From a phage, in sequence record PX441839.1: a DNA stretch of 64,000 bases; one strand, given 5' to 3'. Below, in pieces: positions 2,770-47,326 of this stretch. A program made the position numbers and the translations under genes. Positions within the stretch are counted from its first letter, which is position 1. Each line of letters starts with the position of its first letter. The notes beneath the pieces are model-generated. The model worked only from the letters and a program-made list of their open reading frames with translations. It had not been told where the DNA came from and ran no database searches.

Positions 2770-2775
2770 TAAGCT

Positions 2776-2796: not shown

Positions 2797-2810
2797 AAAA
2801 GGAGATTTAA

Positions 2811-3461: not shown

Positions 3462-3462
3462 T

Positions 3463-5820: not shown

Positions 5821-5833
5821 ATAATTGACTTTG

Positions 5834-5862: not shown

Positions 5863-5882
5863 AACTTTCATGAGGTAATTCT

Positions 5883-6344: not shown

Positions 6345-6357
6345 ATAAGGGGTGAGT

Positions 6358-19938: not shown

Positions 19939-20454
19939 ATGAAGATGGAAAACTTTGAAGTTTACTCTCCAGAATTTAAAAGGTTTGGAGAGGGCGTCCA
20001 ATATTTTAGGGATGCAGAAGGAAGAGACTTCTATGAGAGTCGTGATCTTTTCACCAAGAAGTATTGCGTGTTCTACGACGAGCATGGGGTTGTAAGGGGT
20101 ATCTGCAAATCAGTGGAGGTTACGAGGGGGAACCCTAACGGTCTATCTATTGCAGATCTCAACTCCTTGCCCAGAGGGTTTGAGATGTTCAAGGGTATCT
20201 GGAAATTCGACGGAAAGAGGATAATTCCTTGTGATTTTGACCCTGCCATAACAACCAAGATGCGGAAGGATAAGTTATTCAAAGCTCTTGCCTCACGACT
20301 TGCCCCTCTTCAAGATGCTGTTGAATTGGAGGAAGCCACAGAGGAAGAGACCTTGGAATATAAAAGGCTCCGTTCATTAAGGGTTAAGCTTCTCCGAGTC
20401 CCAGATGACGAGTCCCCTAGTAATGTAGCTTGGGAAGATTTCTCGGGTATTTAA
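19939..20454 (+). CDS. hypothetical protein (possible tail fiber assembly/chaperone)
   Basis: 171 aa directly after the tail fiber gene; GAGGG RBS. Confidence 0.45.
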   Translation: MKMENFEVYSPEFKRFGEGVQYFRDAEGRDFYESRDLFTKKYCVFYDEHGVVRGICKSVEVTRGNPNGLSIADLNSLPRGFEMFKGIWKFDGKRIIPCDFDPAITTKMRKDKLFKALASRLAPLQDAVELEEATEEETLEYKRLRSLRVKLLRVPDDESPSNVAWEDFSGI

Positions 20455-21310: not shown

Positions 21311-21583
21311 ATGTTAAAATTCCTAAAGGACTTGATCCGGTCCACAACCGACCCTGCCAAGGCTTCACATACAAAGCTTTGGTCGAATATCGGTATGGCT
21401 TCAATGACTGCGGTGTTTCTCTGGTATGGTTTCAAAGGAACCCTCCCTGAGTGGTATTTGTGGGTTTATGCCCCTTCCGTTGCTGCACCACAGTTATTTA
21501 GCAAACTGATCGCCCTTCGTTGGGGAATAAACCCCAACCAGAAGAATACAGAAGATGAATTAAAAGGAGATCCTCGTGGCTGA
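21311..21583 (+). CDS. small membrane protein
   Basis: 90 aa with a hydrophobic segment (IGMASMTAVFLWYGF); AGGTGG RBS. Confidence 0.45.
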   Translation: MLKFLKDLIRSTTDPAKASHTKLWSNIGMASMTAVFLWYGFKGTLPEWYLWVYAPSVAAPQLFSKLIALRWGINPNQKNTEDELKGDPRG

Positions 21584-24500
21584 TGATATTATTCAACTGA
21601 TCAGTGCAGAAGCTGACGCCGCTGTTGACCAAATCATTGAAGACTCTGTAAGGCTTCATAAAGTTGTAAATGGAACTGGAGTTGAGACAGTTGTAACAGA
21701 AGATGGTAGCATAATCCCTTCTGTTCGAAAAGCCCTGATTGACAACTTGTATTTTAAGACCCCTCCAATTCCTTGGAGACAAGGAACACAGGTAAGAGAG
21801 TTTAACCAACTTTATTCCTTTACCGATGTAAACGGAAAAGCCACTTGGTGGTATGCACCAGGAGCTACAAACAGTTCACCAGTGACGCAAGGTGATCAGC
21901 CAGCTACGGATACAAGATGGAGAGTGTTCTTAGATGCTGGGAATATGGATGGGATCTATGCTCCGATCCTGTCTCCAGATTTCAAGGGAAATCCGAGAGT
22001 ACCCACCCCTGCGGAAGGTGATGAGAGCACCTCAATTGCAAACACACTGTGGACAAAAAATGCGATAGCAAAAGCTATTGACATTGCACTTCCTAACTGG
22101 GATGATGCAATTTTTAACAACATCACTGTTAAAAATAATTCGGTGCTCAATAATCTCAGAGCAGACGGGCAGGTAACTTTTACTGGTCCGAAGGTCGATG
22201 CTGTTGATTCAGAGTTCAACCTTAAAAAGATCAATCTCGTCGGGGAAGATGCAGAAATAAATTTCCTTTGGTCTGATGGATCAGGTTACAGAACAAACCT
22301 GACACCCAACAAGATCTTCACTGCGGAAATGACGGCAAACAGGGTCAAAGGTTCGTATGTTGAATCAGGAGAACCTCGTGCTGTTGGAACAACTATGCGT
22401 GGGCATGGAGAGGCAATCTTTGATACTGTGCATATCTCAAAAAACGAAAGACAGCCAGTGGATGCAGACACATTATCTGTCACTGGGATAACCCGTGTTC
22501 AAAACCTCATTGTAGAGGGAGAGGCAGTAGGGATCAAGTCTAACGTAGATGGAACAACCATCGCACCGAGCAACATAAACAATGATGGGCATATTAATAC
22601 CAAATCCCTGTATGTCTCCGAAGAGACTCAATTGGATGGTATTACAAGGATCGGTGATGTAGAATTCTTAGGGACTGTCAAGGGACTTGATATGAATATC
22701 GAGTTCGACGAGATGAACCTTAAGAGTTTAAATGTCGCAGAATCCCTTGTTGTTGGTGGACAAACAACAATGTCTGCCGCTGTTATCGGAGATGTTGTTT
22801 TCACTGGATCTGTGGCGGGTATCGTATTGCCACCTGCCAATGTCGATGGACAGGAAATAAAACCTGCCTCTGTTGAGACAGAAACTCTCGATGTGTTGGG
22901 AGAGACCGTTCTTGAGAACCTGACAGTAAATGGAACGGTGACTGGCATTGACATGTCTGTAGATGGAACAGACATATCCCCATCAAATGTTACGACAGGA
23001 AACTTAACCGTTAATGGACAGCTTACCATGAACGGGGCTATCCAAATTAACAATATTGATGGTGACTCTGTCAAGACGAAAACGTTAGAGGTCTCCAACT
23101 TAGCAACTGTTCAGAATCTGACTGTTCCAGAGGAAGGGACTATAACGGGTTTTGGAAAGGTTGTCAATGAGCAAGATATCCTTCCAAACTCTGTCTCTGT
23201 AAAAGAGGGGTTGTCTGTAGGAGGAACTACTAACCTGAGAGATGTGAACATCTCTGGGAAAGTAACTGGACTCAATCCCGATTTCGGGCCTGGTTCAACG
23301 ATTACCTCTGACACGGTAAATGCTAAAACGGTAAATGCTGATACTGTCAATGCAACTACTTCCAGGACTGGGAACATAACGGTTACTGGAAGGATCTTAG
23401 ATGCAGAAGGAAATGATTTTGCTCTCCGTGTAAGTCCAGAACAGATTGGTGAAGCTATCAAGGTTCTTGATATCCAGCCAAAAACCATTGTTACTAAAGT
23501 CAGTGATGAGGATAAAGGATCTGTAACCACAGGTACAATCACGGCTGATAATGGAAACATTGGAACTTTAGGGACCAGCAACCTCACCATGCAAAATGGT
23601 ACGGTAAACGGATCTTTGAAGGTGATGGGAGAGATCCTGGACAAGGATGGAAACCCTGTTGCAATTATGGACATTCCGAGCATGATTGCTGGGAAGGACA
23701 TCGCACCGAAGGACGTTAGATCCTCTGGCTCTGTAACTGCCGCTGTGGACCTTACCGTCAATGGAAAGGCCAAGGTAGGTGGAACCTTAGAAACAGGCTC
23801 TGTGACCGTTACAGGAGGTCTCAGCACAACAGGCAGTGTCACTGTAACTGAGCAGCTATCTGTTCTTGGCAACGCTGTTGTTTCTGGAAGTCTACAGTCA
23901 ACAGGTGCGGACATTGGAGGAACGACCTCTGTTGACAATCTGATTGTAGCTGGAACCCTTACAGATGCACAAGGGAACCCAATTGGATCTGTCGAGTCAA
24001 TCACAGGGAAGGATATCAATCCTCGTGCTGTAACTGCAACTGGTAATATTTCCACAACAGGGACTATTACCGGACAGTCTGGTAGAGTAGATGAATCATT
24101 CACTGTAGGAACTGACCTTGGGGTTTCAGGTAAGTTGTCAGCAGGAGAGACAACACTTGGAGTCACAAAAACATCTTCTCTGGAAACAGGTCCAATAAAG
24201 ACATCTGGAATATCTGTCCTTGAGGGTAGTATTTCGACAGGCAAAGCTGTGACTGTAGGAACTGACCTTACTGTAACAGACAATGCCGTCATCGGTCATG
24301 TAGATATGGATTTTGACGGTGATCGGTTGAAGGTTGTGGGGAACCAACGGGTAGAGGGGAACCTGTATGTAACTGGAAACATCAACGGGAACGTAGATAT
24401 TTCTGGGCAGGATATTAACCCGAGATCTGTAACTGCCTCTGGTAATATTTCGGTTGCAGGTACAATTAGCTCCGACATTGGAGATTTCAACTCTGTCGAG

Positions 24501-25064
24501 ATTGGTGTTTCTGGAACTGCGGTTGGCCTCAGGGTCCTCAATAATGCAACTTTTGCTGGAGATCTCACTGTCTCAGGAAAGGTCAATGCAACTATTGACC
24601 AATCCGAGCAAGATGTAGTGACAAAGAACCTGCAAACTGGTAATATAACTGCAACGGCTATAACTGCTGGAAGTTTAAATGTTACTGGTGCTCTTAAGGC
24701 CCCGACTTCGGATGTTGAGGCAAACAGTGTCACTGCAAACAAGTTCATGGTCACACCTCAAGAAAGAACGCTAGATACTGGGGCATTTATCCCTGATGGA
24801 ACAACCAATATCTACAATATTGTATTGACACAGAATACAAGAATTGAGGCCCCTAGTCAACTTATTCAAGGTGGCAAGGGTGGTTCTATCATTATCTACT
24901 TGAACCAGGATGCAACTGGTGGTAGGGAGGTAACATTCTCCACAGAGTATCAAGCTCTTAATGATGGTGAAATAAATATGAACCCTAGTGGTGTTACTGT
25001 GGTCCAGTTGATGTATTCTGGACATGGAAGCATCATTGATACACTTATCCTTCCTAGAGTGTAA
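21576..25064 (+). CDS. large repeat-rich tail fiber/tailspike-like protein
   Basis: 1162 aa; GTG start with AAAGGAG RBS; T/G/V/N-rich with many degenerate repeats of DI.P..V...GN..V.G type (for example DINPRSVTASGNISVAGTISS, DINPRAVTATGNISTTGTITG). Confidence 0.7.
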   Translation: MADDIIQLISAEADAAVDQIIEDSVRLHKVVNGTGVETVVTEDGSIIPSVRKALIDNLYFKTPPIPWRQGTQVREFNQLYSFTDVNGKATWWYAPGATNSSPVTQGDQPATDTRWRVFLDAGNMDGIYAPILSPDFKGNPRVPTPAEGDESTSIANTLWTKNAIAKAIDIALPNWDDAIFNNITVKNNSVLNNLRADGQVTFTGPKVDAVDSEFNLKKINLVGEDAEINFLWSDGSGYRTNLTPNKIFTAEMTANRVKGSYVESGEPRAVGTTMRGHGEAIFDTVHISKNERQPVDADTLSVTGITRVQNLIVEGEAVGIKSNVDGTTIAPSNINNDGHINTKSLYVSEETQLDGITRIGDVEFLGTVKGLDMNIEFDEMNLKSLNVAESLVVGGQTTMSAAVIGDVVFTGSVAGIVLPPANVDGQEIKPASVETETLDVLGETVLENLTVNGTVTGIDMSVDGTDISPSNVTTGNLTVNGQLTMNGAIQINNIDGDSVKTKTLEVSNLATVQNLTVPEEGTITGFGKVVNEQDILPNSVSVKEGLSVGGTTNLRDVNISGKVTGLNPDFGPGSTITSDTVNAKTVNADTVNATTSRTGNITVTGRILDAEGNDFALRVSPEQIGEAIKVLDIQPKTIVTKVSDEDKGSVTTGTITADNGNIGTLGTSNLTMQNGTVNGSLKVMGEILDKDGNPVAIMDIPSMIAGKDIAPKDVRSSGSVTAAVDLTVNGKAKVGGTLETGSVTVTGGLSTTGSVTVTEQLSVLGNAVVSGSLQSTGADIGGTTSVDNLIVAGTLTDAQGNPIGSVESITGKDINPRAVTATGNISTTGTITGQSGRVDESFTVGTDLGVSGKLSAGETTLGVTKTSSLETGPIKTSGISVLEGSISTGKAVTVGTDLTVTDNAVIGHVDMDFDGDRLKVVGNQRVEGNLYVTGNINGNVDISGQDINPRSVTASGNISVAGTISSDIGDFNSVEIGVSGTAVGLRVLNNATFAGDLTVSGKVNATIDQSEQDVVTKNLQTGNITATAITAGSLNVTGALKAPTSDVEANSVTANKFMVTPQERTLDTGAFIPDGTTNIYNIVLTQNTRIEAPSQLIQGGKGGSIIIYLNQDATGGREVTFSTEYQALNDGEINMNPSGVTVVQLMYSGHGSIIDTLILPRV

Positions 25065-25114: not shown

Positions 25115-27613
25115 ATGATACCTTTCCCATTATTAGGTGGAAAATCACCAACTCCACCACCGCCACTTCCAAAGGGCGTTTCTGGGTACTCAGGAACTAC
25201 CTACATAGGTGAAGATGGTGAAACTTGGTCTTGGAACAGGCAACTGGAGAGATGGATTAAAAAAGATCCGTTTCCAGTTGACGAAGGGCATCCTGAACAC
25301 TTCATGGTGGGGCCTGCAAAGATAGGCACAGATGGTTCTTTCCGATACTTCAATACTGTAACCAACGCTTGGGAAGATGTTCCTAACGGGAGCACCTTGG
25401 GGATGGTCCCTCTGACCCTGACAGATGAAGGCGTAAACATAGGGACATCGGTATTTGTAGAGTATCCCATTTATCAATCCGCTGGGTATGCCGTAGGTCT
25501 TGGAGGGTTCGCAAGACTGCTTGGGACGGAGGTACTGGGAAGACCAGATCTTATGGACCTGTACCTTATAGGAAGAAGAGGGGATTTCTTTTCACCTTCT
25601 CCTGCAAACCCTGACTCCACCAACGCAATTCTCGTAATTCGAAATGTTAAAAGGGATAGGGTGTGGAATACTTACCTGAACATGGTTGTGGAAACAAGTG
25701 ATGGGGAGATGTGGGCTTGGGGAATGAACTTCTATAATCAGTACGGCCCTTGGATAAGAAGCGGAGTAACAAGTTCCAGTCAACCACACATGAAGATAAA
25801 CCCATTCTCTAAAATATCTGATTTTCCAGTACCACCTGAGAAAATAAAAGATATCTTCCCCGGTGTAACAATGGTCATAGTTGCAGACACTGACGGGAAA
25901 TTCTGGTCCAAAGGGATTAACATTGGTCAGTTTAACGATATTGATGACCAAATTAGGACAGCCTGGGTAGAGATACCCGCAGATAGGTTCCCAGGGTTTA
26001 AAAAGTTTTATCGGAGTCTTAACGGAACAGGTGCCGCCAATGATCTTGCTTACACCAACTGCGTTTGGTATTTGACAGATACAGGGATAAGACATTTTGG
26101 AAATGTGTATGGAGTGATGGACGGTTCCCCACTTGTATCTGCAACAACTAGGGATCTCCCTGACAGTAAAGTTCACTCAGCCCCTGTAGGATTGCCTGAA
26201 AGGAATGATGAGCCTAAAATAGTGAGTTTTTCACTGGCCAGATCTTCTGACTATATCCTTATTGCTGTTTGGTATGATGACCCCGAAGAGATGTATGTTG
26301 CCTATCCTACTTCTGGACTTATTTGGGACCACGCAGATGGAGTAACGTATGGGAGGAGATTCAATAAATCCTCAGCCCCTGTAGGGAAGCATAGGAACCC
26401 CATACTGGACTTCAATAAAGAGGCCACCCTTATAACGGGGTTTGATGGAAAATTCTATGCTTCTGGGACCCCAAGTGTAAATAACGGGCTATACTCAAGA
26501 ACCAGCCCAACCACTTTTATCGACCAGAAGATGCCATCCTCTCTCGTTTATCAGGTTGAGCTATCCGACTCTGTAAACGGAAAAACTCAACTGTTGAGAA
26601 ATGATAGGCGTTCTTTAATGATAGCCGACCTTTCGGGAGGAAGCAACTACTTTGGAAATGGAACTTTCTGGAAACCAACTGCAACGATTAAGTGGCCTGA
26701 CTATCCAGACGCAATTCCAATAGTGTTCAAGAATGATGGTGTCACTATCTCGGGATCTGCTGAAAGGGTAGATACGTTTTGGGGGTGGAATGTTAGCAAC
26801 TACAACACTGTCAGCAGTACAGCCGGAGACCAGTACGGTGCTCCCAGTGGGGATGCTGTGCATGTCTCAGGGGAAGGGCACCTTACAATCTGGAAAGATG
26901 ATAGCAGTATCCTTGTTGGTGGTTACAACATAGGTGGAGTGTTTGGTGCTTTTAACCAGTGGAAGCAACCACAAGGTGCTGGAAGGTGGGTAGGCACAGT
27001 AAGAGAGTCTTTTACTGGCACATCGACAGTAAGCTGCGGAACCACTATTGCTTGGGATGGAAAAGATCATTACATATTTGGCAAAAACTACTGGGATGTT
27101 GCAAACGGACAACCAGTAATAAAGTTCAGTTCCTCTGCACCTGTAAAATGGAACAGTAAACAGGGATACCCGAACCTCCCTAATTTTATAAAATGGATTC
27201 CTGCAATTATGGGATATTCTGATGACGAGGGTTCTTTGCAACAACCCTTCTTTATGTATCGGGGTACTGACGGTCTGTTTTATGCTGCGGGTAGCAATAC
27301 AACAGGTGCCTTGGCGACAGGGACCCCACCTGAGACAAGGGATGAGCAAAGATGGACTTTTGAGGTAATGAAGGGATCTGAGGTGTTTGTTGGTAAAAAT
27401 GTTAAGGTTTACCACGGACACGGAAATACCTCTTGTTTGTTGTTCGCTTGCGAGGGAAAGGTGTACGGTGTTGGATTACCTAACAGTATGAAATGGAATG
27501 ACACCGGAACCATCCCTGACCCGTTCTTCCCTGGTTTCAACAGAAGGCTTAATGAAATCACCTACCTGATGGATTTGCCGGATGTTATCTATACCCGACC
27601 AATAGAAGAATAA
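25115..27613 (+). CDS. RCC1-like beta-propeller repeat protein (candidate distal fiber/receptor-binding protein)
   Basis: 832 aa; GAGGAG RBS; at least 5 repeats of [DG].G..[WYF]..G.N..G type (EMWAWGMNFYNQYG, KFWSKGINIGQFND, KFYASGTPSVNNGLY, LFYAAGSNTTGALATG, KVYGVGLPNSMKWND); last gene of the plus-strand operon. Confidence 0.6.
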   Translation: MIPFPLLGGKSPTPPPPLPKGVSGYSGTTYIGEDGETWSWNRQLERWIKKDPFPVDEGHPEHFMVGPAKIGTDGSFRYFNTVTNAWEDVPNGSTLGMVPLTLTDEGVNIGTSVFVEYPIYQSAGYAVGLGGFARLLGTEVLGRPDLMDLYLIGRRGDFFSPSPANPDSTNAILVIRNVKRDRVWNTYLNMVVETSDGEMWAWGMNFYNQYGPWIRSGVTSSSQPHMKINPFSKISDFPVPPEKIKDIFPGVTMVIVADTDGKFWSKGINIGQFNDIDDQIRTAWVEIPADRFPGFKKFYRSLNGTGAANDLAYTNCVWYLTDTGIRHFGNVYGVMDGSPLVSATTRDLPDSKVHSAPVGLPERNDEPKIVSFSLARSSDYILIAVWYDDPEEMYVAYPTSGLIWDHADGVTYGRRFNKSSAPVGKHRNPILDFNKEATLITGFDGKFYASGTPSVNNGLYSRTSPTTFIDQKMPSSLVYQVELSDSVNGKTQLLRNDRRSLMIADLSGGSNYFGNGTFWKPTATIKWPDYPDAIPIVFKNDGVTISGSAERVDTFWGWNVSNYNTVSSTAGDQYGAPSGDAVHVSGEGHLTIWKDDSSILVGGYNIGGVFGAFNQWKQPQGAGRWVGTVRESFTGTSTVSCGTTIAWDGKDHYIFGKNYWDVANGQPVIKFSSSAPVKWNSKQGYPNLPNFIKWIPAIMGYSDDEGSLQQPFFMYRGTDGLFYAAGSNTTGALATGTPPETRDEQRWTFEVMKGSEVFVGKNVKVYHGHGNTSCLLFACEGKVYGVGLPNSMKWNDTGTIPDPFFPGFNRRLNEITYLMDLPDVIYTRPIEE

Positions 27614-29728: not shown

Positions 29729-30112
29729 TTATTTTCTCCCCTTCTTACGGTGATAAACTCCACGTTTGGACAGAGGAATTTCCTCTGCATCTCTTCCATC
29801 AACACCATCTTCACCAGGTTCACCTTGAGGACCCATTGGACCTGCTGGTCCCATTGGCCCCATAGGTCCTACAGGTCCAGTGACAACACGAATGTCTTTA
29901 GGTTTGTACAGAGAATAACCCAAGCATCCAAACCAACCGATAAGTGTAATTACGCTCGGAGGCAAAAGGAAGAAGATAACAGTAAAGACAGAGATCATCC
30001 ACTTATTCCTGTGATCCTTCTTCCATGCGATAATTATTGGGGAAAAACTAATTGCCAATAAAATTAACAGAAAAACAAGACCGAGAGTGATGGCAGCTTC
30101 TGCAATTATCAT
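29729..30112 (-). CDS. membrane protein with C-terminal collagen-like repeat
   Basis: Two hydrophobic helices, then VTGPVGPMGPMGPAGPMGPQGEPGEDGVDG (about 9 Gly-X-Y triplets). Confidence 0.55.
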   Translation of the reverse strand: MIIAEAAITLGLVFLLILLAISFSPIIIAWKKDHRNKWMISVFTVIFFLLPPSVITLIGWFGCLGYSLYKPKDIRVVTGPVGPMGPMGPAGPMGPQGEPGEDGVDGRDAEEIPLSKRGVYHRKKGRK

Positions 30113-30995: not shown

Positions 30996-31592
30996 TTAAT
31001 CACAACTGCAAGATGACCCTGAGTCACAGGAAGAATAGCTGTCTGAACCACCGTAGCTGGACGAAGAACTATACGATGAAGTGTAGTTGCAATTGTCATC
31101 ACTGCGGTAAGAACTTGAACCAGACGTCACGATTGCAGTGGAAATACCTGCAACGGTGGCGATATTCAAAATATCATCACTATCCTGGTGAACTGGACGA
31201 GATGGACTTGAAACCGACATTGGACGACCATTTGATCGTGACCGCTTAATGAACTCTTTCTTCGCCTTAGGTGGTAATTTACGACCTTTGGCGTAAGCTG
31301 GGAGTTCAACTTCTTTCAGTTTATCATTCAGAGTCTTACCCTGTTTAATTACAACTTTGGAATCATCCTGTACGATCTCCGCGACCTTGACAGTGTTCTC
31401 TTTGGTATTGACTGCTGTGACCACCTCTTTGTCACCCAGAGGCTTGTCGATAGGTTTGGTTCCCACTTCAACCATTCGAACATTAACATTGGTAGGTTGT
31501 TTACTGATGTATTCATCAACCTTCACTTCGTCAATTTCAACCTTGGAGGAAGAGAACAGACCTTTAAACCAAGATACCAGCTTCTTAAACAT
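30996..31592 (-). CDS. hypothetical protein with Ser-rich C-terminus
   Basis: 198 aa; C-terminal low-complexity S/Y/G/C/D tail. Confidence 0.5.
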   Translation of the reverse strand: MFKKLVSWFKGLFSSSKVEIDEVKVDEYISKQPTNVNVRMVEVGTKPIDKPLGDKEVVTAVNTKENTVKVAEIVQDDSKVVIKQGKTLNDKLKEVELPAYAKGRKLPPKAKKEFIKRSRSNGRPMSVSSPSRPVHQDSDDILNIATVAGISTAIVTSGSSSYRSDDNCNYTSSYSSSSSYGGSDSYSSCDSGSSCSCD

Positions 31593-38130: not shown

Positions 38131-39258
38131 TTAATCTACACTTGCACTTATTTCAGTCGCAAGTCTAAAGCTCCCTTCGACCAAGCCAGGGATCTCCTCA
38201 ACATTGTTAATTACAACATTTGACACTCTGACAGGAGGAGAACTCGGCAGGTAATCCTCCACCTTGCTTGCCACAACATCACCGTTTGTGTTTTTGACCA
38301 CCAGTTTCGAGGCAGATCTTGATGTAGTGGTTGGAGCCTTTGTGTACGTTGTAACCTGAACAGCTTTTATCTGTTGACCACCTGGTGCTCTCCAGCTTGG
38401 GGACAGGGCTACAATTGGTGCCTTCCCTACAGTTTCAGATGCCAATGAATTCACAGCAGGGGAGTTCATAGCCCTCCCCATTGTATTTGAACCCCCATAG
38501 ACGATATCTGAAATTGTTTGTGTCGTTCCTCCAGAGAAGCTACCTATGTCAGTGACACTTTGTGTTGTTCTTGTTATTTGGGGTTCACCCAAGAACTCAA
38601 AATTCCCTTCTTCATTGTATGCAGTATACATCCTTCCAAACATTAGTGGGTTAACAGTGTCGCCAAAGGCAACTCCATCGTACAAAGCACCAGAGAACCC
38701 TATGAAAAGTCCAGTCCCAACTGGCATACGCTCTGCGAAAGTGTAAGGACCAAGCGGCCCTGCCGGGGCATCTCCGTTGAGTGAGTTCCATGTCTCAAAG
38801 CTATCTTCACTGACCTTTCTTATACACACCTCCATGTAGTTATAACCAGGGGTGTACGATGATCGCATCAGGACTGTAGATGGGTCAACCCCATTGAACT
38901 GGTTTGTAAGTATCCCCGTCCGGAGGAATCCTCTATTAAAGGGGAAGAATACCCGATACCCGAAGGTAAAGGTGGCATTCACTGGAGCTTCAAGAAGTAT
39001 CTTCCTGACATCTATGGTGAACCCACCATAATCTCCAGTGGAGCTTGTAAACCTGATTGCGAACACGGGGGATGATCCTCCACTCTGGGAGGCGGTCATA
39101 AGGGACCCCGGCAAGGTAGGTGATTTTATCATAGATATTGACACACCGAGCTTTTTTGACAGGTACTCCTCAAGACCCTTTTCATAATCGTTGCTGGAAT
39201 TATATGCGAATGGTGTCATATCCAAAAAATCTGTAAATCCGAGTATTGCCATAATCAC
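38131..39258 (-). CDS. paralog family protein, copy 3 (375 aa)
   Basis: Shares N-terminus (MIMAILGF) and internal motifs (YMEVCIRKVS; AYNEEGNFEFLG) with the 39449 and 40752 genes. Confidence 0.6.
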   Translation of the reverse strand: MIMAILGFTDFLDMTPFAYNSSNDYEKGLEEYLSKKLGVSISMIKSPTLPGSLMTASQSGGSSPVFAIRFTSSTGDYGGFTIDVRKILLEAPVNATFTFGYRVFFPFNRGFLRTGILTNQFNGVDPSTVLMRSSYTPGYNYMEVCIRKVSEDSFETWNSLNGDAPAGPLGPYTFAERMPVGTGLFIGFSGALYDGVAFGDTVNPLMFGRMYTAYNEEGNFEFLGEPQITRTTQSVTDIGSFSGGTTQTISDIVYGGSNTMGRAMNSPAVNSLASETVGKAPIVALSPSWRAPGGQQIKAVQVTTYTKAPTTTSRSASKLVVKNTNGDVVASKVEDYLPSSPPVRVSNVVINNVEEIPGLVEGSFRLATEISASVD

Positions 39259-39452
39259 TCCTTAATTGGTGATGTTAAGACTTCTGTTACCACGAGTAGC
39301 GTGTTCTGTGCCAACTCAGGTTGAAGGAGAACCTCTGTGACCACAATGCCGACATTGGCAGAAAATTGTGGTGTAATAAGAACCTCTGTTGTCACTAAAT
39401 AGACGTTGGAAAACATTGCCTGTTCCCCAACGGCGGTCATGATTTCAATCAT
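39255..39452 (-). CDS. leader microprotein with 3 x 17-aa tandem repeats (VVTEVL type)
   Basis: MIEIMTAVG leader, then three 17-aa units with core V(V/T)TEVL; stop overlaps the start of the 38131 gene (ATGA). Confidence 0.55.
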   Translation of the reverse strand: MIEIMTAVGEQAMFSNVYLVTTEVLITPQFSANVGIVVTEVLLQPELAQNTLLVVTEVLTSPIKE

Positions 39453-40525
39453 ACATCCACAACCCTCTCGCTGGAAGCAACGAACGAAAGACCTGCCAAC
39501 TGGTCCCTTCCTGAAAGTGGAATAGTCACCTTGCTAACCCCACGGGCGTAATCTTGACTATCGTTCTTTATGCTTTTCGATTTCAAAAGCTCACCATCAG
39601 AACTTACTATCTGAGATGTGATATCCACAGACTTGCCTTGTACACTTGATCTTCCAACTAGTGTAGAGCTAACCGCAGCAATCTTCACAGAAGGGTCAAG
39701 AGTTGAAAGATTAGCTTTTGCCACTGCTGGGTTTACTAGGGTTGTTGGACCCAGCAATCCTCCCAAGTGATTATAGTTTAATCTGTTGGTAAGTGTTGCC
39801 TCCCCGTTTGGGTTATCACCTCCAGATACCAGTGTGTTTGGTAATGTTCTTACCGAGCAAGTTCCCAAACGCTCCTCAAGACCTTCCTTGTTGAATGCCC
39901 AATATTGGTCCATAAATGTTACCTCCACTTGAGTGGTTGGTAACTTATTGGTGGTAAGAGGGGACCAATTATACCCAGTGCCTATTACCATTTGCTGGGG
40001 AAGAGAGTTTACAGAATCGTTTTGCAAGACAGTGCCGTCAACCCAAGCCCTTAGTCGATATGAGGTTGCAGAAACTTTACTTACTTCAAGCTCCACGTAC
40101 ACTGATCTTTCTGATCCCGAGTACCTCTGCATAGGGTAATCCAAAACTGCTGCCAAAGATCCAGAGGTAAACCCTCCCAACCTTAGGTCTGCGGTCATAT
40201 ATTCTTGGGGGATGATTACTCGGCTTCCGACCGTAAGGGTATCGCCAACATCCACAATCCAAGGCCCAATCGACGTCACAGTTGCTGCGTATGATGTCAT
40301 CGTCGGAAAGAATGACACCTTATTTTGACCAACGGTTCCGTACATGGTGCCGGATGAAATGTAGTAATCGAATCTACCTCCGTTTGAACCCACAGGGGTT
40401 TTTGGAATACAAGCGGCATTTAATGTTTGTAGCAGCAGGAGCGCATCGTTACCTTGTATTTGCCCCTTGTTAGGGAATTCCCTGAGGGAACCGAACCCAT
40501 TGATGTGAAAAATCATACAACTCAC
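39449..40525 (-). CDS. paralog family protein, copy 2 (358 aa)
   Basis: MSCMIFHINGF; DVGDTLTVG; YVELEVSKVS; RAWVDG; FMDQYWAFNKEGLEERLG; homologous to the 40752 gene. Confidence 0.6.
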   Translation of the reverse strand: MSCMIFHINGFGSLREFPNKGQIQGNDALLLLQTLNAACIPKTPVGSNGGRFDYYISSGTMYGTVGQNKVSFFPTMTSYAATVTSIGPWIVDVGDTLTVGSRVIIPQEYMTADLRLGGFTSGSLAAVLDYPMQRYSGSERSVYVELEVSKVSATSYRLRAWVDGTVLQNDSVNSLPQQMVIGTGYNWSPLTTNKLPTTQVEVTFMDQYWAFNKEGLEERLGTCSVRTLPNTLVSGGDNPNGEATLTNRLNYNHLGGLLGPTTLVNPAVAKANLSTLDPSVKIAAVSSTLVGRSSVQGKSVDITSQIVSSDGELLKSKSIKNDSQDYARGVSKVTIPLSGRDQLAGLSFVASSERVVDV

Positions 40526-40713
40526 CCCACAGTATAAAGATATTCTTGAACAAAAGCCGCTGAGTTAATCTCTGACGGGACATAATACAGATATTCTTGA
40601 ACAAAAGCAACAGTATCTGTATTTGTTGGGGAGTAGTACAGGTACTCCTGAACAAAAGTCACAATCTCAGGATTAATGGCTCCACTTCCAGAGGCTGTCA
40701 TCATCTCCAACAT
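40522..40713 (-). CDS. leader microprotein with 3 x 17-aa tandem repeats (FVQEYLY type)
   Basis: MLEMMTASG leader, then (V/A)(T/A)FVQEYLY x3 at 51-nt period; GAGGTAA RBS; stop overlaps the 39449 gene start. Confidence 0.55.
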   Translation of the reverse strand: MLEMMTASGSGAINPEIVTFVQEYLYYSPTNTDTVAFVQEYLYYVPSEINSAAFVQEYLYTVG

Positions 40714-40751: not shown

Positions 40752-41804
40752 TTAAACATTCGGTTCTTTTTCCCTTGAAGATACGAAACTGTAGTTTGTA
40801 AGTTCAGACATTGGTTTATCACTCACATCCAAAACTGTTTCACAGAAACCTCCACGATAATCAGGGGTTACAGATTCCTTTGTGGTTGAGGATACTACCT
40901 TTCCAGTGTGATCCAGAATCTGACTGGTCACCGGAGCAGGAACTCCCGTTACCGACGACTTACCTACAGTTGTCATCTTAAAAGCCTTAATCCTTAGGTT
41001 AGGGTTCGGGCTTGGCATATTCACCTTTTGTACCATAGGGTCGCGAAGGGTTATCGGGTCCTGAGACCCTTTCGAGAGATCCCAATTAACCCTTGCGGTC
41101 CCCCAAGTGGACCCACCAGGGTTTTCACTTCCTGCCGTTAATGTTCTTGGGACTTGGGTCACGGTTGCTCTCCCAATTCTCTCATCCCTTCCCTCAGTAT
41201 TAAATGCAAAATAGATATCTTGGAAATAAAAACTCCCCGCTGGGTTGGTGTTGGATTTCCAAAGAACACTTGTTCCAATAGCACCATAGTTGAACAGTTC
41301 CGACCCTTGACCCGCTTTCCTCAAAAGACCGTTTACCCACATCTCGTAAGTGTATGGGTAATCAGGATGATCTGTTTTTCTAACTACCATCTCCACATAC
41401 GGATTAGCTGTCCTATCTGTGTGGTCACAAACCATGGTTAATGACGACAGATACCCATTTGAAAATCCACCAACCGCAGGTAATGAATTTGCGTGAGTAG
41501 ATGTCATACCCAATCCACAACCAACCGTCAAAGCGTCCCCAACATCAATAATTATGGATGGGAGGTGAATATTCAAACATCCGATCCCTGATGGACCCAA
41601 TACGTTCATTGACAACCTGTTGGTCCCAGGTAAAGATAGATTAGGGCTAGAACTCTGGTATGCATAATTTGCAAAAGTTGCACCTTGCTTTGGGCTTTGT
41701 GGGTGCCCGTACCGCAGAGAAGTTAAAACGGTTTGGATATCGTTAGTGCTTACCAAGTTAGTTAATGGCTCCCACACAGAAAACCCCTGAATTCCGATAA
41801 TCAT
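40752..41804 (-). CDS. paralog family protein, copy 1 (350 aa)
   Basis: MIIGIQGF; DVGDALTVG; YVEMVVRKT; MWVNG; FQDIYFAFNTEGRDERIG. Confidence 0.6.
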   Translation of the reverse strand: MIIGIQGFSVWEPLTNLVSTNDIQTVLTSLRYGHPQSPKQGATFANYAYQSSSPNLSLPGTNRLSMNVLGPSGIGCLNIHLPSIIIDVGDALTVGCGLGMTSTHANSLPAVGGFSNGYLSSLTMVCDHTDRTANPYVEMVVRKTDHPDYPYTYEMWVNGLLRKAGQGSELFNYGAIGTSVLWKSNTNPAGSFYFQDIYFAFNTEGRDERIGRATVTQVPRTLTAGSENPGGSTWGTARVNWDLSKGSQDPITLRDPMVQKVNMPSPNPNLRIKAFKMTTVGKSSVTGVPAPVTSQILDHTGKVVSSTTKESVTPDYRGGFCETVLDVSDKPMSELTNYSFVSSREKEPNV

Positions 41805-42001
41805 ACACTTTCCTCTATAACGTATAAATATTCCGGCATTAAACCTATCGTACTTACATCGGGAATGATGGAGTACAAGTATTCCGGCATAATGCCTATA
41901 AGATTTACCTCTGGGGCCAGAATATAAAGATATTCCGGCATAAGACCTATGACCTCAACTGGGGCCTTTCTTACCCCTGATGCCGTCATCAATTCTATCA
42001 T
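41801..42001 (-). CDS. leader microprotein with 3 x 17-aa tandem repeats (MPEYLY type)
   Basis: MIELMTASG leader, then IG(L/I)MPEYLY x3; stop overlaps the 40752 gene start (ATGA). Confidence 0.55.
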   Translation of the reverse strand: MIELMTASGVRKAPVEVIGLMPEYLYILAPEVNLIGIMPEYLYSIIPDVSTIGLMPEYLYVIEESV

Positions 42002-42013: not shown

Positions 42014-42850
42014 TTACACTTTTCTTGCATTGCTGGGAAATTCTCGTTTCTCCGTATCACCCCATATGATCCTTACAGCAGATGCACCTGGGGCATTTGA
42101 AGATCCGTGTCCAGACCCACCTCCGAAGTTTCCTCCTCGTCTACCACTCTGGTCTTCGCCTCCAGACCCACCTCTTGCACTTGTGGGGATTTGACCACCC
42201 CTGCCCCCTGCACCATTGACACCTACTCCGTAAATACCCACTCCACCACCGCCACCTGAGTTTTCACCAGATGACCCTGAGAAGTAATATCCTACAGATC
42301 CTCCACCCCCACCACCTTCCCCGCTACCTCCAGCGGAGTAATTTGTAGAAGGGGGGTATGCATTACCTCCGTCCCCTCCCTTTCCTATATACCCTGCTGC
42401 ACCTCCAGCGCCAGCACATCTTTTCCTGTCATTGGCGGAGGAGTTACTCCCTCCAGCACCACCTTTGTTTATTACCGCACCACCCATATCAGGATACGAT
42501 CCTGTGTAAGGTTCCGGTCCAGAACCAAACCCTGCGACAACCAGCGGAGTTCCATCCCGAAAAAGTCCAACAACAGTTGTCCCATCATCGCTGCCTCTTG
42601 TGTGGACCTGTAGAGTCTCCCCAGGTAGCACAGGTATGTGGTTTCTCCATACTAGGTCTCCCCCAGCACCACCTCTACGTGGGAGAGGATCTGTTTGAGG
42701 CATCCCTCCTTGACCGACACACACTACGCTAATATCTTCCACATTGTTTGGAACAACCCACAACTTAGGTGCAGTAGTGAGGGAAGTGTACTCCACATTC
42801 CCTAGTTTAACTGGAGCTTTAGTTTTTACCGTCGCTGTCATTAATTCTAA
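42014..42850 (-). CDS. Gly-rich protein with the shared N-terminal leader
   Basis: Start at internal ATG (MLELMTATVKTKAPV) with AAGAGGAAA RBS; C-terminal 60% is poly-Gly-rich (GGAGGSNSS...GGSGEGGGGGGSVGYYFSGSSGENSGGGGGVGIYG...). Confidence 0.55.
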   Translation of the reverse strand, partial: LELMTATVKTKAPVKLGNVEYTSLTTAPKLWVVPNNVEDISVVCVGQGGMPQTDPLPRRGGAGGDLVWRNHIPVLPGETLQVHTRGSDDGTTVVGLFRDGTPLVVAGFGSGPEPYTGSYPDMGGAVINKGGAGGSNSSANDRKRCAGAGGAAGYIGKGGDGGNAYPPSTNYSAGGSGEGGGGGGSVGYYFSGSSGENSGGGGGVGIYGVGVNGAGGRGGQIPTSARGGSGGEDQSGRRGGNFGGGSGHGSSNAPGASAVRIIWGDTEKREFPSNARKV

Positions 42851-43269
42851 CATAACTTTCCTCTTTAAGATACTAATTCTAGAACGGGTCTCCATCCAAG
42901 ATCGGTATTAGCTGTACCGTTAATCTTCCCACCGAAGATATTCCCAGTAGACTAGGAGATACCTCTGCGTGGAACATGTTATTTTGGTACATTGTGAATT
43001 CAGTCGATAGTGAGTACCTGCCGTAAATTGGAGGGTTAAAGTCCGTAGTTGGCAAAGTCAGAAGTGTCATAAGTACCTCTCTAAAATTCAATGCAATTGG
43101 ATCGCTGTTTATAAAACCATAAAGTCTTCCTTCCAAATTACCACAATTTCAAGCATTATTTACCCTCTGTGTTGCATGGAAGGATCTTTATTGATCCTCG
43201 ACGTACCGCAGGATTCTTATCACTCCTTGCACACTGTTGTCGGGTACTGGTGAGTATAGCCTAGGTATC

Positions 43270-43806
43270 TCAAGTATATATAAACTCCCCTGTAAAGTTT
43301 ACATCCGTGTATATTCCACGAAACGGAGATACAATCTTCATCAACCCGCTTACAGGGTCTAAGTACACAAAATTAGTAACCGTATATCCTAAGTAACTGG
43401 AGTAAGAGTTACTGGTGTGGTTATTCCTTGAAACCGAAATATATTGATTATAAGTAACAGTTACTGTTTTCGTTATAAGGACGGTAGAATTAGTCCGCAG
43501 CAGGGCTTGGTACGTACCATACGAAGGTGAGGCATGTTGCGCTACCAGATACCACCAAGAGTCGTAAGTTACCGAAGTTCCGTATGGGCTTCCCCACATC
43601 CTCCCGTCTGTTGAGTACACTTTCCCGACATCATACGCCATAGTTTGGGCCGGAGCAGTGACCTCGGGTATCCAAGACCCTGCCGCCTGATTGTCAGGGA
43701 TACGGAGTATTCCCCTTTGTTGGTCTAGCCATTTTAGAAACACAGGATAGGTCATGGGGCCCTCGATTGGGGCGGATGCCCCTGATACCGACAGTAACTC
43801 AAGCAT
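43270..43806 (-). CDS. hypothetical protein with the shared N-terminal leader
   Basis: Start at internal ATG (MLELLSVSGASAP) with GGAGAG RBS; the longer track ORF would run through the upstream terminator. Confidence 0.5.
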   Translation of the reverse strand: MLELLSVSGASAPIEGPMTYPVFLKWLDQQRGILRIPDNQAAGSWIPEVTAPAQTMAYDVGKVYSTDGRMWGSPYGTSVTYDSWWYLVAQHASPSYGTYQALLRTNSTVLITKTVTVTYNQYISVSRNNHTSNSYSSYLGYTVTNFVYLDPVSGLMKIVSPFRGIYTDVNFTGEFIYT

Positions 43807-43824
43807 AAATCTCTCCAATATTTG

Positions 43825-43847
43825 AAAGGGGCCGAAGCCCCTTTTTT
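43825..43847. terminator. bidirectional terminator hairpin
   Basis: AAA-GGGGC-cgaa-GCCCC-TTTTTT between the DNA polymerase exon 2 and the leader cassette. Confidence 0.6.
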
Positions 43848-43862: not shown

Positions 43863-43895
43863 ATTTTAACACGGACGCTTTGAATTATCCACAAG
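43863..43895 (-). promoter_or_regulatory. putative extended -10 promoter (TGtTAAAAT) for the leader cassette
   Basis: Minus-strand TGTTAAAAT just upstream of the terminator hairpin and the 43806 gene; -35 is weak. Confidence 0.3.
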
Positions 43896-43928: not shown

Positions 43929-44228
43929 TCAGTGACATTGCCCCCAATTAAGTCCTGTCAGATACTCACCTGTGATATGTACAGGTGCCTTCATCATCTT
44001 AGCTGCTTGTTCAACGCAACGAACAACCATTTCACCGACAGGGCAGTAGATGATAGTGAATATTCCATTCTCATCGGGGTCGCACTTAAACTTACCTTCC
44101 TTGACACAATGACCATCCAGAACCATACGCTTCTTGAGGCAATCCTCAACAAAAGCTTTTGCTTCGACTTCATTGTCAAACTTCCATTCCTTCTTGAACT
44201 TATTTGGAACTTCAAGCTGGTATTCATC
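43929..44228 (-). CDS. DNA polymerase family A, exon 2 (C-terminal end)
   Basis: Begins at DEYQLEVP (second half of the Pol A motif C, HDE...E.P) and ends ...TGLNWGQCH, like the Pol I C-terminus; the leading Met of the track ORF is probably intron-derived. Confidence 0.6.
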   Translation of the reverse strand, partial: DEYQLEVPNKFKKEWKFDNEVEAKAFVEDCLKKRMVLDGHCVKEGKFKCDPDENGIFTIIYCPVGEMVVRCVEQAAKMMKAPVHITGEYLTGLNWGQCH

Positions 44229-44998
44229 CAAAGTTTAGCAGGTTCGTTAATCCTGCCCACACCATTACGTGTTGCCATACGGTTTCCCGTAGGATCGGAC
44301 TATATCACCACCCTTTTCAGGGTGCTCCCCATTTCGACGCCACTTGGTCGCCTACGCCTCTCGGCTAGTCTCTGAACGTTAAGACCACGTATACTTCTCG
44401 GAAATATGCTTCCACTGCCGACGCTGCTTAATGGCTCGTACTGTTGCATAGGGGAATCCCATGTCGCGTACCTCTGCCTGGCTCATTCCGCTTTCAAGAA
44501 GCTGGCAAATGGTCATCACTTCGTCTTCTGTGAGGGCACTATTAGCATTGTTGATACCTTCCGCGCTGCGACAGTTGTGGCGATAGGCGTTCTCTATGTT
44601 TTTGCCTCTCGTAACCCACTGTAGGTTGTCTTTGTGGTTATTCCTTTTATCGGGCCACTTGTGATCAACCTCTGGAAGATTGTTCGGATTGGGAACAAAA
44701 CATTCTGCCACCAAAACATGGACCGCCTTTGTCGTCGCCTTTTTGTTAAGGTAAAGACTGACAATTGCATACCCTCTTCCATTATCAACATGCTTCATAG
44801 GTTTACCTCGACGACCTATAATGGTCCCGTCCTCGTAAACTTTATATCCGAAATAGTCTTTGTACTCCACGTAGTCCTCTTCGCTGCTGATTAACATAGC
44901 TGCACTTTAGTTTATTATTAACCCAGTGTCAACCTTAGCCTTCCAGCAATTAAAGGAGTTTTCGATGTAGGTTGCCCTACAAAGCCACAATGTTACTT
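44229..44998 (-). mobile_element. group I-like intron in the DNA polymerase gene, carrying an HNH homing endonuclease ORF
   Basis: About 770 nt separate the exon 1 end (...VRRIIYYH) from exon 2 (DEYQLEVP), splitting motif C. It contains an HNH ORF and an 80-nt core conserved with the second intron. Boundaries approximate. Confidence 0.55.
44379..44897 (-). CDS. HNH homing endonuclease
   Basis: 172 aa; HVLVAECFVPNPNNLPEVDHKWPDKRNNHKDNLQWVTRGKN is an HNH-type motif; lies between the polymerase fragments. Confidence 0.75.
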   Translation of the reverse strand: MLISSEEDYVEYKDYFGYKVYEDGTIIGRRGKPMKHVDNGRGYAIVSLYLNKKATTKAVHVLVAECFVPNPNNLPEVDHKWPDKRNNHKDNLQWVTRGKNIENAYRHNCRSAEGINNANSALTEDEVMTICQLLESGMSQAEVRDMGFPYATVRAIKQRRQWKHISEKYTWS

Positions 44999-47326
44999 AT
45001 GGTAATAGATAATACGACGAACTCCCTCGTCATACCATCCCTTCTTGACCAGTTGCCAGTGAAGCAAGATTCCAACCAGGTCAAATAGTGCTGCACCACC
45101 ATTCTGCTGAAATGCGTTCAACAGGGAGTGCTTTGAACGAGTCCAAATCTTACGCCCATCCAAACCATAGATGAATCTTTTCCCTGTCGCTTCCCAGAAT
45201 TTCTCCAGCGCTTCTTTACGACCTTTTAATCCGATGTTGCTATCCCAGAATGCGTTGATTACATCCTGTGCCTTATCTACTGTGATTCCAAGCATGGATG
45301 CAATCTTGGGTGCCTGAGCGCCGTACATGATTCCATACGTGATACTCTTTCCCTCGCCACGAGAAACCTTCTTCCCCGCTGCCTTTGTGTATGCCTCTGC
45401 GTTTCGGGTGTGGGCGTCCCCCGACTCCATGATTTCAAGGTAAGCGCCACCATCGAACTCATACGCACCCCAAGCCGCAATCATACCTTCCAGGTTAGAA
45501 CCATCAATACCCACTTGGTACTTACCCTTTGGTGCTCGCCAAAGGGAACGCATCTCATAACCAAACAACACCTTCGGATCAGGCTTAGGCATGTTTGCGC
45601 AGATCGTGTGCTTACGACGCCCAGTGTTGGTAATCCCTGAGAACCTTGCTGGTAATCGACCATCAATCTTCAAGCGTGGGTGGTTAAGAAGTCCAGTATC
45701 AACCTTATCCTCTTTCAGTGGATCAAGGACAGATCGTCGGTTACGTGCAGATAACCACTGAACAATGCCTTTAGCCATCGCACCATCCACCTTTTCCAAG
45801 TTTGGGCACAATCCCTGCTGGTCTTTCAACTGAGGGCTTGTTGGCAATGCACGGGCCTTCTTACGGAAGAATTTGAACATCTTCTCCTTGTCTGCCCACT
45901 GCTTAGGGGTAATGTGCAAGTTCTTAAGGATAAGATCACGATATTCTGTCTGATCTAGTTGCTCAATATACTCCCGCACAATTGCATCAACTTCACCATC
46001 CGGACGTTGCTTTTTAAACTGGTCCTTTGTTGCATCCTTTGTACGCCAAATTGTTGGAATCCAACCCGCATCTCGGATGAGGAACTTCTTAACATCATCC
46101 TGGTTACCGATACGCATCGGAATCATTATATCTGGCATGGTCTTATTCTTCAAGTCCGCCAAAGCCCGTGCCATATCCTCTGGAGGTAGTGGCTCCAGTG
46201 TGGATTGTTTTTCGTTCTGACTACGAATGAACTGAGGCATTTGATCCTCATCTTCCACCCCGTGGTCATTACAGTATTTAATAGCCGCAGCCGTAAGTGA
46301 ACCATCTGCCTTAAATGCTTTAGCCGGAGGCCCCTTGAAATCAAGGGCTTCCCAATTAATATTGTATCCTAACTTCTCCAGCCATTTCCAACCTGTGCCG
46401 GACAATGTCCCGTCACCCTTGAAAGGTTTGGATGGGAAAGTTGGTTGTGCGGATTTAGCCATCTCTTTCTTCGGAAGCTGAGGCTCAACCTCTTCCTCAA
46501 TCTTCTTCATGAAGGCATCAACCGTATCGCGGAGTTTCAGCGCCGCCTCTATGTCAAAATCAACACCTTGGATTTCTTGCTCAATCATCAGGTAATCGGT
46601 AAGCATACCTCGACGAAGAGAGTCTTTCCAGTTGATCATTTTATATTTTGTTGGGACACGCTCATCTTTAAACATGAAGCGTTTATCATCTGGGTACGCA
46701 TCGCAGGTGATTTCCTTCATAAGGGCGTCCCACACCTTTTCGTTGATGATAACGTCCTCAATGATACGGTCACAATACTTCCACAACGGGAGTCCACGCC
46801 AATCATCAATGGCGACTTTCAGGTTGGCTACTCTCATACCCCATGCTTCCAGACCATGAGGGCCAACAGGTTTCATCTTTCCTGTGACAGGGTTTTTAAC
46901 CATTTCTGGGCAACCCTTCGGCAATGGGCGGTCAGGGTAGAGTGTACGAGACATAGACAAGGAGTCAAACAGGTTAACCTGTTTTCCATTGATCGTTCCC
47001 ATGCACTTAGGATCGGCAAACATATCGTATTGTGTACCGAACAGCTTCTTGAACAGACGTAAGTCATATCCAAACAAGTTGTGAATAACAATGCTACTAG
47101 GGACTTCTGTGAACCATCTATTAAGGTCAGAGAAGTTCATTACATGCAGATTGAATCCCTTCGCATTAACGAAGTTCAAAGCCTCTTGATAACCCTCTCG
47201 CGCTGGGTCCATGAAGAGATACCAGTTATCCTTTTTGTACTCCTTGAAGAGGATGCAGTGAGCATGTAAGTTCTCCTCGTCAAGTAAACCAGATGCTTCC
47301 GCATCACCTACCCATAAACCTTTCAT
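44999..47326 (-). CDS. DNA polymerase family A, exon 1 (3-5 exonuclease and polymerase domains through the start of motif C)
   Basis: Motif A-like DGSNLEGM (D.S..E), motif B-like KSITYGIMYGA (K...YG..YG), N-terminal exonuclease-like region; ORF ends abruptly at ...VRRIIYYH-K-stop inside motif C. Confidence 0.8.

Follow-up and report, generated by a model that had tools for sequence, protein, structure and literature searches.

A glycine-rich protein with a short N-terminal tag, encoded beside the DNA polymerase gene of a large myophage, as a candidate virion-attached adhesin

What is a protein that is one quarter glycine doing among the replication genes of a phage? The question is raised by a gene at 42014-42853 on the minus strand of a 64,000-nucleotide stretch of phage record PX441839.1 (hereafter the window), directly downstream of the gene for the C-terminal fragment of the DNA polymerase. 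The window comes from a large myophage of the Vequintavirinae type, and the DNA near the gene is 73-86% identical to that of Cronobacter phages CR9 and PBES02, Salmonella phage SSBI34 and others. Our favoured answer, to which we give a probability of roughly 0.55, is that the glycine-rich protein serves as an accessory adhesin attached to the virion, its gene being part of a variable island that follows the polymerase gene.

A tag of nine residues at the N-terminus would recruit the protein to the exterior of the phage particle, with docking most probably at the peripheral tail or fibre apparatus. In the structural model, about a dozen conserved glycine motifs (residues 113-258) would pack as polyglycine-II-type strands, in a bundle that projects from a TNF-like sandwich and whose closing strand, AVRIIWG, would run back to that sandwich. 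The variable loops between the motifs would bind a ligand on the host surface, and the protein would be one of several interchangeable tagged binding modules of the island. Incorporation into the virion, the docking site and ligand binding are the steps that we infer. The fold and the family are already known, from PF21722, Pam3 gp24, Bxb1 gp29 and gp33 and, more distantly, S16 gp38 and ALK; the tag, and the variable island whose modules bear it, appear to be new, in that no prior description was found in the open-access literature searched.

The glycine-rich gene and its predicted fold

The gene and the parts of its product are the following.

42859-42864, minus strand: Shine-Dalgarno-like AGAGGA, 5 nucleotides before the ATG (read from the sequence)
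42014-42853, minus strand: glycine-rich gene, coding sequence for 279 amino acids plus stop codon (from the list of open reading frames (ORFs), the Shine-Dalgarno sequence and orthologue starts)
42827-42853, minus strand: N-terminal tag MLELMTATV, residues 1-9, followed by a short linker, residues 10-17
42518-42802, minus strand: predicted TNF-like beta-sandwich, residues 18-112
42080-42517, minus strand: glycine-rich domain, residues 113-258, predicted bundle of polyglycine-II type
42017-42079, minus strand: C-terminal closing segment, residues 259-279 (AVRIIWG..REFP..), from alignment, model and conservation

The start codon is likely the ATG at 42853-42851 and not the upstream ATG at 42895, because AGAGGA lies just upstream of the former and PVP-SE1 gp18 and other homologues begin at the equivalent methionine. 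The initial annotation had drawn the gene boundary at 42850, which is three bases short. Glycine accounts for 25.4% of the 279 residues, 14% of residues 1-112 and 36% of residues 113-262, and the longest runs, of six and five glycines, fall short of a homopolymer. Among the ORF stretches of at least 150 amino acids in the window, this protein is the richest in glycine, excepting an overlapping frame of the same DNA. The glycine-rich C-terminal region that had been described is real, although it makes up about 52% of the protein and not the 60% claimed, and the final 17 residues are not glycine-rich.

A database search returned 178 homologues, many of them flagged as PF21722 (Gly_rich_2), a family without assigned function for which an open-access literature search found nothing. 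The closest are an unannotated ORF of SSBI34 (83% identity) and PVP-SE1 gp18 (69% identity), whose gene also lies directly after the polymerase gene. PF21722 is matched by 44 of the 85 diverse homologues that make up our family alignment, and other family members among the homologues carry FN3 domains or long fibre-type N-termini. In the PHROGs database the query itself strongly matched a family without known function, and together with its neighbours it matched only such families (phrog_4474, 6409 and 28811). An NCBIfam scan of the protein gave no match, scans of the protein and its neighbours against Pfam, NCBIfam and PADLOC gave nothing useful, and sequence searches of the PDB, whether with the lone query or the family profile, gave no real match, and none to ALK/LTK. 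We also built a test profile solely from 52 PF21722-positive proteins, which bypasses the Pfam thresholds. The query scored 184.5 bits against it over residues 6-276, while 400 composition-matched shuffles, some of which kept the regional composition, reached at most 2.3 bits. Because of this difference, the protein is, judged by its sequence, a true but divergent relative of the Gly_rich_2 family, with homology over the whole domain. It has the signature motifs VP.GV...CVG.GG, GG.GG.L...N.I.V.PGE and GGAGGY.G.GG, runs of five to six glycines and, at the end of the set, AVRIIWG..R.FP. A chance origin of the ORF and of the leader that it shares with its neighbours is excluded.

The AlphaFold2 model calculated from the alignment of 85 sequences has a mean predicted local distance difference test score (pLDDT) of 89.3 and a predicted template modelling score (pTM) of 0.89, with no segment below a pLDDT of 50. 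Beta strands are spread over residues 18-108, and a strand at residues 259-264 (VRIIWG) rejoins the sheet of the sandwich. Residues 113-258 are ordered in the model and nearly devoid of secondary structure assigned by DSSP, which fits extended segments of polyglycine-II type. Over the 85 homologues the glycine motifs are conserved columns, position by position, and the closing segment is the best-conserved part of the family. Between the motifs lie variable loops prone to insertions and deletions (residues 136-146, 164-173, 187-198, 220-226, 233-241 and 249-256). A Foldseek search matched the predicted fold to the receptor-binding module in the tail fibre of cyanophage Pam3 and to two tail-tip proteins of mycobacteriophage Bxb1. 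Against predicted viral structures there were 111 matches at E ≤ 1e-3, many of them under the name 'glycine-rich domain-containing protein' and several annotated as tail fibre, minor tail or baseplate proteins.

The initial annotation had viewed the region as low complexity, and had mentioned both flexible linkers and phage adhesins as places where such segments occur. The ordered model and the conserved glycine motifs, between which only loops vary, rule out the flexible linker and support the likeness to adhesins, as do the fold matches to Pam3 and Bxb1. The same evidence bears on the broader suspicion that the stretch is a disordered linker or low-complexity filler, or that the ORF is spurious. 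The skewed composition and the lack of a direct Pfam or NCBIfam match would suit that suspicion, as would the treatment of the gene in SSBI34 and RUS_R7, where it was skipped or mis-called. A model of high confidence throughout, position-specific conservation across 85 homologues, a profile score that shuffled sequences do not approach and a Shine-Dalgarno sequence all contradict it, and we regard it as effectively ruled out.

Annotation has indeed served this gene badly, and several published genomes miss it or place it on the wrong strand (PQ002170, 7056-7827; MZ520832, 7240-8079). In RUS_R7 it is replaced by short ORFs on both strands, including a 'minor tail protein' on the opposite strand, and in SSBI34 the orthologous ORF has no annotated coding sequence. 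The glycine codons generate long spurious ORFs on the opposite strand, such as 42358-42732 on the plus strand of the window.

In Pam3, the TNF-like plus glycine-rich module forms the distal part of the fibre and is proposed to recognise the receptor, with conserved glycine motifs and a variable tip (PMC9608196). The Pam3 tail fibre gp24 (PDB 7YPX, 7YFW) combines a TNF-like sandwich with a glycine-rich domain, as the protein described here is predicted to do. It differs in a long N-terminal alpha-helical domain, which trimerises and docks to the baseplate, and in a dedicated chaperone, gp25. The glycine-rich protein has neither the helical domain, no helix being predicted anywhere in its model, nor a recognisable adjacent chaperone gene. 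The neighbouring ORFs have no Pfam match and the sole Caudo_TAP gene lies in the tail module, although a chaperone of a novel kind is conceivable. The Bxb1 domains have been recognised as bundles of polyproline-II or polyglycine type like those of the S16 gp38 adhesin (PMC13243192), and Bxb1 gp33 is an accessory tail component (PMC12646305). The 'tail wing brush' gp33 and the tail spike gp29 (PDB 9D93) match the predicted fold at 16-19% sequence identity and come from a phage of unrelated host and lineage; for the Bxb1 attachment partner gp31/gp30 we identified no counterpart. The tail-fibre tip adhesin gp38 of Salmonella phage S16, of T2 type, is a small fibre-capping protein, and its receptor-binding part is a polyglycine-II sandwich in which conserved glycine motifs alternate with hypervariable segments (PMC9608196, PMC13243192). 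It has the logic of conserved motifs and variable loops in common with the glycine-rich protein, although comparison with gp38 (PDB 6F45) gave no sequence or fold match. The extracellular glycine-rich domain of ALK/LTK also pairs a TNF-like fold with a polyglycine-II bundle, an arrangement that the model reproduces; that domain belongs to an animal receptor tyrosine kinase and has more helices, whereas the phage protein stands alone with its 279 residues.

By analogy, then, the glycine-rich protein may work like the adhesin tips of the Pam3 fibre and gp38 rather than being one of them, because it has no helical shaft and no evident chaperone and the comparison with gp38 failed in both sequence and fold. 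Taken alone, it extends an established structural class of phage receptor-binding modules by one divergent member with poor annotation. The tag and linker, about 17 residues ahead of the sandwich, have a pLDDT of about 60 and no secondary structure in the model. A protein with so little ahead of its sandwich cannot form a fibre alone. Attachment to the particle, if it occurs, must therefore depend on this short peptide or on the globular body.

A short N-terminal peptide shared with virion proteins

The initial annotation had noted a leader that the protein shares with its neighbours. The leader is real. It is visible in an alignment of five ORFs, and a scan of all six frames of the 64-kb window for M[LIFVQM]E[LIMVAFY][LIMF] with 40 or more codons after it gives just five occurrences, each of them the start of one of these neighbouring ORFs within 39.2-43.8 kb. 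They belong to the glycine-rich protein, a 178-residue protein and three small proteins of 63-66 residues, with the consensus M-[LIF]-E-[LM]-[LM]-x-x-x-G. The five copies use differing synonymous codons, so the tag is conserved as a peptide and not as DNA, and the sequences upstream of them are unrelated save for the ribosome-binding site. A repeat or gene conversion at the nucleotide level as the source of the shared start was rejected on account of the same codon differences. A signal peptide of the Sec type was also rejected, as there is no charged n-region and no hydrophobic core.

The glycine-rich protein had been placed at the head of an array of paralogues and assigned to the same functional system. 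The shared tag supports a common system, but a relationship as paralogue to the large proteins of the array is not supported, since apart from the tag the glycine-rich protein and these large proteins show no similarity; it is the tag, and not paralogy, that joins the glycine-rich protein to its neighbours.

The tag also occurs on virion proteins of related phages. For this analysis we informally grouped them as tag-bearing virion proteins of Vequintavirinae-like phages, and the glycine-rich protein carries their motif, M-[LIFQN]-E-[LM]-[LM], at its true start. Pectobacterium phage CB7 has, according to its published proteome, a single structural protein with a gene in the replication region, CB7_55 (4 peptides, 24% coverage; PMC7344957), whose N-terminus reads MQEMMIVTS. 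CB7_251 is also a virion protein confirmed by tandem mass spectrometry (PMC7344957). Its tag is hidden because the annotation begins at an internal methionine, the full ORF (KY514263, 1748-2392) starting with MNELLLIGCQ. CB7_251 is the orthologue of phiTE_203, which it matches from residue 1 and to which it is nearly identical throughout. With an exponentially modified protein abundance index (emPAI) of 533, phiTE_203 is reported to be the next most abundant unidentified protein of the phiTE virion (PMC11972413); it is Laminin_G_3-like, below the Pfam cutoff. Virions of coliphage W70 contain W70_237, W70_238 and W70_239, with 233, 196 and 141 spectra, respectively (PMC11370258). These three RCC1-like proteins are encoded among small genes of unknown function and start with MLEMLNLG, MLEMLNLSG and MLEMMNLGS. 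In total, six tagged proteins are found in the virions of three phages (CB7, W70 and phiTE), most of them encoded outside the core structural genes. Because these relatives are in virions, the glycine-rich protein would be expected on the particle.

An export leader of the double-glycine type would make the product a secreted, bacteriocin-like glycine-rich protein. Some family members do have the spacing E-x-x-x-hydrophobic-x-G-G/A/S near the N-terminus (MIEALTMSGG, MLELLSVSGA), which resembles that of class II microcin leaders. The tag of the glycine-rich protein itself, MLELMTATVK, lacks the glycine pair, however, and known double-glycine leaders are much longer than the tag. The cargo consists of folded proteins of 180-400 residues, tagged relatives are in virions, and no gene for a peptidase-containing ABC exporter was noticed among the ORFs inspected, which were not searched systematically. 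This explanation, too, is effectively ruled out.

Beyond the window, the tag is fused to unrelated cargo (Gly_rich_2, Laminin_G_3, RCC1-like and other proteins) in related and unrelated phages, and it heads Gly_rich_2 and Laminin_G_3 proteins outside the close relatives of the island. In its strict form it is present on 17 of 120 listed homologues of the glycine-rich protein, and in a looser form on many more. In jumbo phage RAY (NC_041973, 3051-7026), the DNA polymerase gene is followed by a gene for a Gly_rich_2 protein and then by two for phrog_6409-type proteins; the former has a looser tag-like N-terminus (MIGLLL...) and both of the latter are strictly tagged. RAY is a nucleus-forming jumbo phage of Erwinia, unrelated to the Vequintavirinae, and the association of such genes with the polymerase gene recurs there. 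The mass spectrometry list from a crude RAY lysate does not contain gp282-284, which carries no information either way. In PhiEaH1 (NC_023610), two genes named 'virion structural protein' beside a tail-fibre gene (2639-3571 and 5411-6688) carry the tag, as MLESMNMSGG and MLEMMMGGSG, the latter eight codons inside the annotated start. PVP-SE1 (NC_016071, 20250-20552) encodes ORF179, a truncated tagged RCC1-like protein of 100 residues (MFEMLLGGK...) that is homologous to the N-terminus of the W70_237-239 family. When IMG/VR was scanned with a degenerate DNA version of the tag, the matches listed were mostly chance hits and included one tagged RCC1-like protein, which led us to W70_237-239.

These occurrences raise a broader and more tentative idea, to which we give somewhat less than even odds: that the nine-residue peptide is a general, portable tag for virion incorporation, by which large myophages attach interchangeable binding modules to one shared docking site, the genes of the modules being movable cassettes that lie apart from the structural operon. 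Its users would be Vequintavirinae-like phages and at least some jumbo phages. The modules would include the polyglycine-II domain, a ConA-like lectin, an RCC1-like propeller and small three-repeat adaptors that carry an untagged partner, and the region after the DNA polymerase gene would be a particular hot spot for the cassettes. If the tag does direct proteins into the particle, this would explain the 'orphan' structural proteins of CB7, W70 and phiTE that are encoded among replication or metabolism genes. Accessory host-recognition proteins overlooked by annotation could then be recognised by a simple rule applied to the sequence, and a short peptide handle would be at hand for the display of foreign proteins on phages that are candidates for therapy. 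A portable tag would amount to a plug-and-play system of host range, of which the open-access literature searched holds no description; a search of that literature for the tag strings themselves also found nothing, a weak negative.

The variable island and possible sites of action of its proteins

The tagged genes of the window form an island on the minus strand, listed here in the direction of transcription from the polymerase gene; the glycine-rich gene itself lies between the third and fourth coding features.

43863-43891, minus strand: promoter-like site TGGATA-17-TG-TAAAAT, between the gene for the polymerase C-terminal fragment and the island
43824-43846, minus strand: GC-rich hairpin, in the same interval
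43270-43806, minus strand: first island gene, tagged 178-residue protein of the phrog_6409 family (MLELLSVSG...; ORF list, PHROGs, alignment)
43109-43156, minus strand: decayed tagged ORF of 15 codons (MLEIVVIWKEDFMVL, then a stop codon; read from the sequence)
42879-43136, minus strand: ORF of 85 residues, probably a remnant, with a start (LYGFINSDP) like the N-termini of the large paralogues
41801-42001, minus strand: small tagged protein 1, 66 residues, the tag plus three repeats of about 17 residues
40752-41804, minus strand: large paralogue 1, 350 residues, untagged; start codon overlapping, as ATGA, with the stop codon of small protein 1
40522-40713, minus strand: small tagged protein 2, 63 residues
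39449-40516, minus strand: large paralogue 2, untagged
39255-39452, minus strand: small tagged protein 3, 65 residues
38131-39252, minus strand: large paralogue 3, phrog_28811, related to CR9 gp061

Each small tagged gene is followed by an untagged gene for 350-375 residues, to which it is translationally coupled, with stop and start codons that overlap or nearly do so. Judged from the sequence, 42879-43156 is a decayed fourth pair of this kind. The tandem repeats of the small proteins, of about 17 residues, have cores such as IGLMPEYLY, AFVQEYLY and VVTEVL, and the pattern of the core (two hydrophobic residues, any residue, glutamate, a hydrophobic residue, leucine) resembles the tag itself; the small proteins may be adaptors that present three tag-like units. 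The large paralogues form a very small family. Word-index searches gave three relatives and an exhaustive search gave 18 representative clusters among 1.84 billion proteins, and an AlphaFold2 model built from six sequences was poor (pLDDT 47).

The content of the island varies even among close relatives. The SSBI34 island encodes a second Gly_rich_2 protein, a Laminin_G_3 protein, the orthologue of the glycine-rich protein and two small-plus-large pairs, all tagged save for the large partners. At the same place PVP-SE1 has the glycine-rich gene alone and CR9 has one small-plus-large pair, and two metagenomic relatives have other combinations.

This variability has a precedent in T4, in which diverse internal proteins have only a capsid targeting sequence in common (PMC3012670). 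By analogy with the tag, a short N-terminal peptide alone is conserved there on exchanged virion cargo, encoded at a hypervariable locus. The tag might thus work like the capsid targeting sequence, packing its cargo into the prohead core for ejection with the DNA and for action in the next host, for example against defences, with the island as a counterpart of the internal-protein locus. In accordance with this, the peptide is conserved on otherwise unrelated cargo, the island content differs between close relatives, the island lies among replication and early-type genes, and phiTE_203 is unseen in the ordered cryo-electron microscopy (cryo-EM) density, although tagged proteins are in virions. 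The two peptides differ in sequence, however, and all identifiable cargo folds (TNF-like plus glycine-rich, ConA-like lectin, RCC1-like propeller) are typical of extracellular binders. The solved phage relatives of the glycine-rich fold are all on tails, the tagged genes of PhiEaH1 flank a tail-fibre gene, and the tagged proteins are larger than the T4 internal proteins and not basic. We consider a role inside the capsid unlikely.

The tagged proteins could also be exposed on the virion at the capsid surface instead of the tail, as a decoration like Hoc, with the tag inserted at the centres of the capsomers. None of the tagged relatives known from virions has been located in the well-resolved models of the phiTE baseplate, tail and connector, and phiTE capsids bear poorly ordered proteins at the hexamer centres (PMC11972413). 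The hexamer-centre protein has been assigned to pTE217, however, which has no tag. The spectral counts of W70_237-239 are nearer to those of baseplate than of capsid proteins, and the solved relatives of the fold are tail proteins. We rate this placement as improbable, below the other two sites of action weighed in this section.

Several observations weigh against attachment of the glycine-rich protein to the virion as an accessory adhesin. Its fold is a prediction by AlphaFold2, and the query falls below the Pfam threshold for PF21722, with no Pfam match even at E ≤ 1 and none within the alignment scan. Its presence in the virion is argued by analogy from tagged relatives, of which phiTE_203, abundant as it is, was not placed in the phiTE cryo-EM maps (PMC11972413) and could be located inside the capsid. 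The gene lies in the minus-strand replication block, about 14 kb from the tail module. A scan for promoters and terminators around the island did no better than chance (9 promoter-like sites against 10.8 expected), so the promoter-like site upstream of the island is weak and not significant alone. In PVP-SE1, ORFans outside the structural module are named 'virion structural protein', names which we take to mirror the published proteome, and the RefSeq name of gp18 is 'hypothetical protein'.

The last point, together with the position of the gene on the strand opposite to the tail genes, would also suit a protein that is no virion component and acts in the infected cell or once lysis has released it, with envelope glycans or receptors as conceivable targets, in superinfection exclusion or as a decoy. 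Six proteins with the same tag are virion components in three phages, however, and inspection of the sequence of the glycine-rich protein revealed no signal peptide and no membrane segment. We judge a non-virion role to be slightly less likely than one inside the capsid, and retain the virion-attached adhesin as the preferred reading.

The surroundings of the island in the window

The positions to which the island is compared above are the following.

31-2769, plus strand: 912-residue collagen-repeat fibre with a weakly Fibritin_C-like end
18446-19936, in the tail module: tail collar protein
19939-20454, in the tail module: the sole Caudo_TAP gene
21576-25064, in the tail module: fibre
25115-27613, plus strand: 832-residue protein with an RCC1-like domain
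43929-44231, minus strand: 100-residue C-terminal part of the DNA polymerase
44379-44897: HNH endonuclease gene that splits the DNA polymerase gene
44993-47326, minus strand: 777-residue part of the DNA polymerase

The plus strand of 1-27613 is a tail module that encodes the collagen-repeat fibre, a tape measure protein, baseplate protein J, a tail collar/Ig protein, a tail-fibre assembly protein, a fibre of 1162 residues and the RCC1-like protein of 832 residues. The RCC1-like domain of the latter is the same type of cargo as that of the tagged W70 virion proteins. Past 27.6 kb the genes switch to the minus strand, the GC skew flips with them, and the genes are of replication type. The DNA polymerase gene is split in the same way in CR9, and it is uninterrupted in SSBI34 and in the two metagenomic relatives.

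Two further proteins of the minus strand have a skewed composition at or near the C-terminus.

29729-30112, minus strand: 127-residue predicted membrane protein with a collagen-like segment (GPVGPMGPMGPAGPMGPQGEPGEDG) close to the C-terminus
30996-31592, minus strand: 198-residue protein with a C-terminal low-complexity tail rich in serine, cysteine and tyrosine (SSYSSSSSYGGSDSYSSCDSGSSCSCD)

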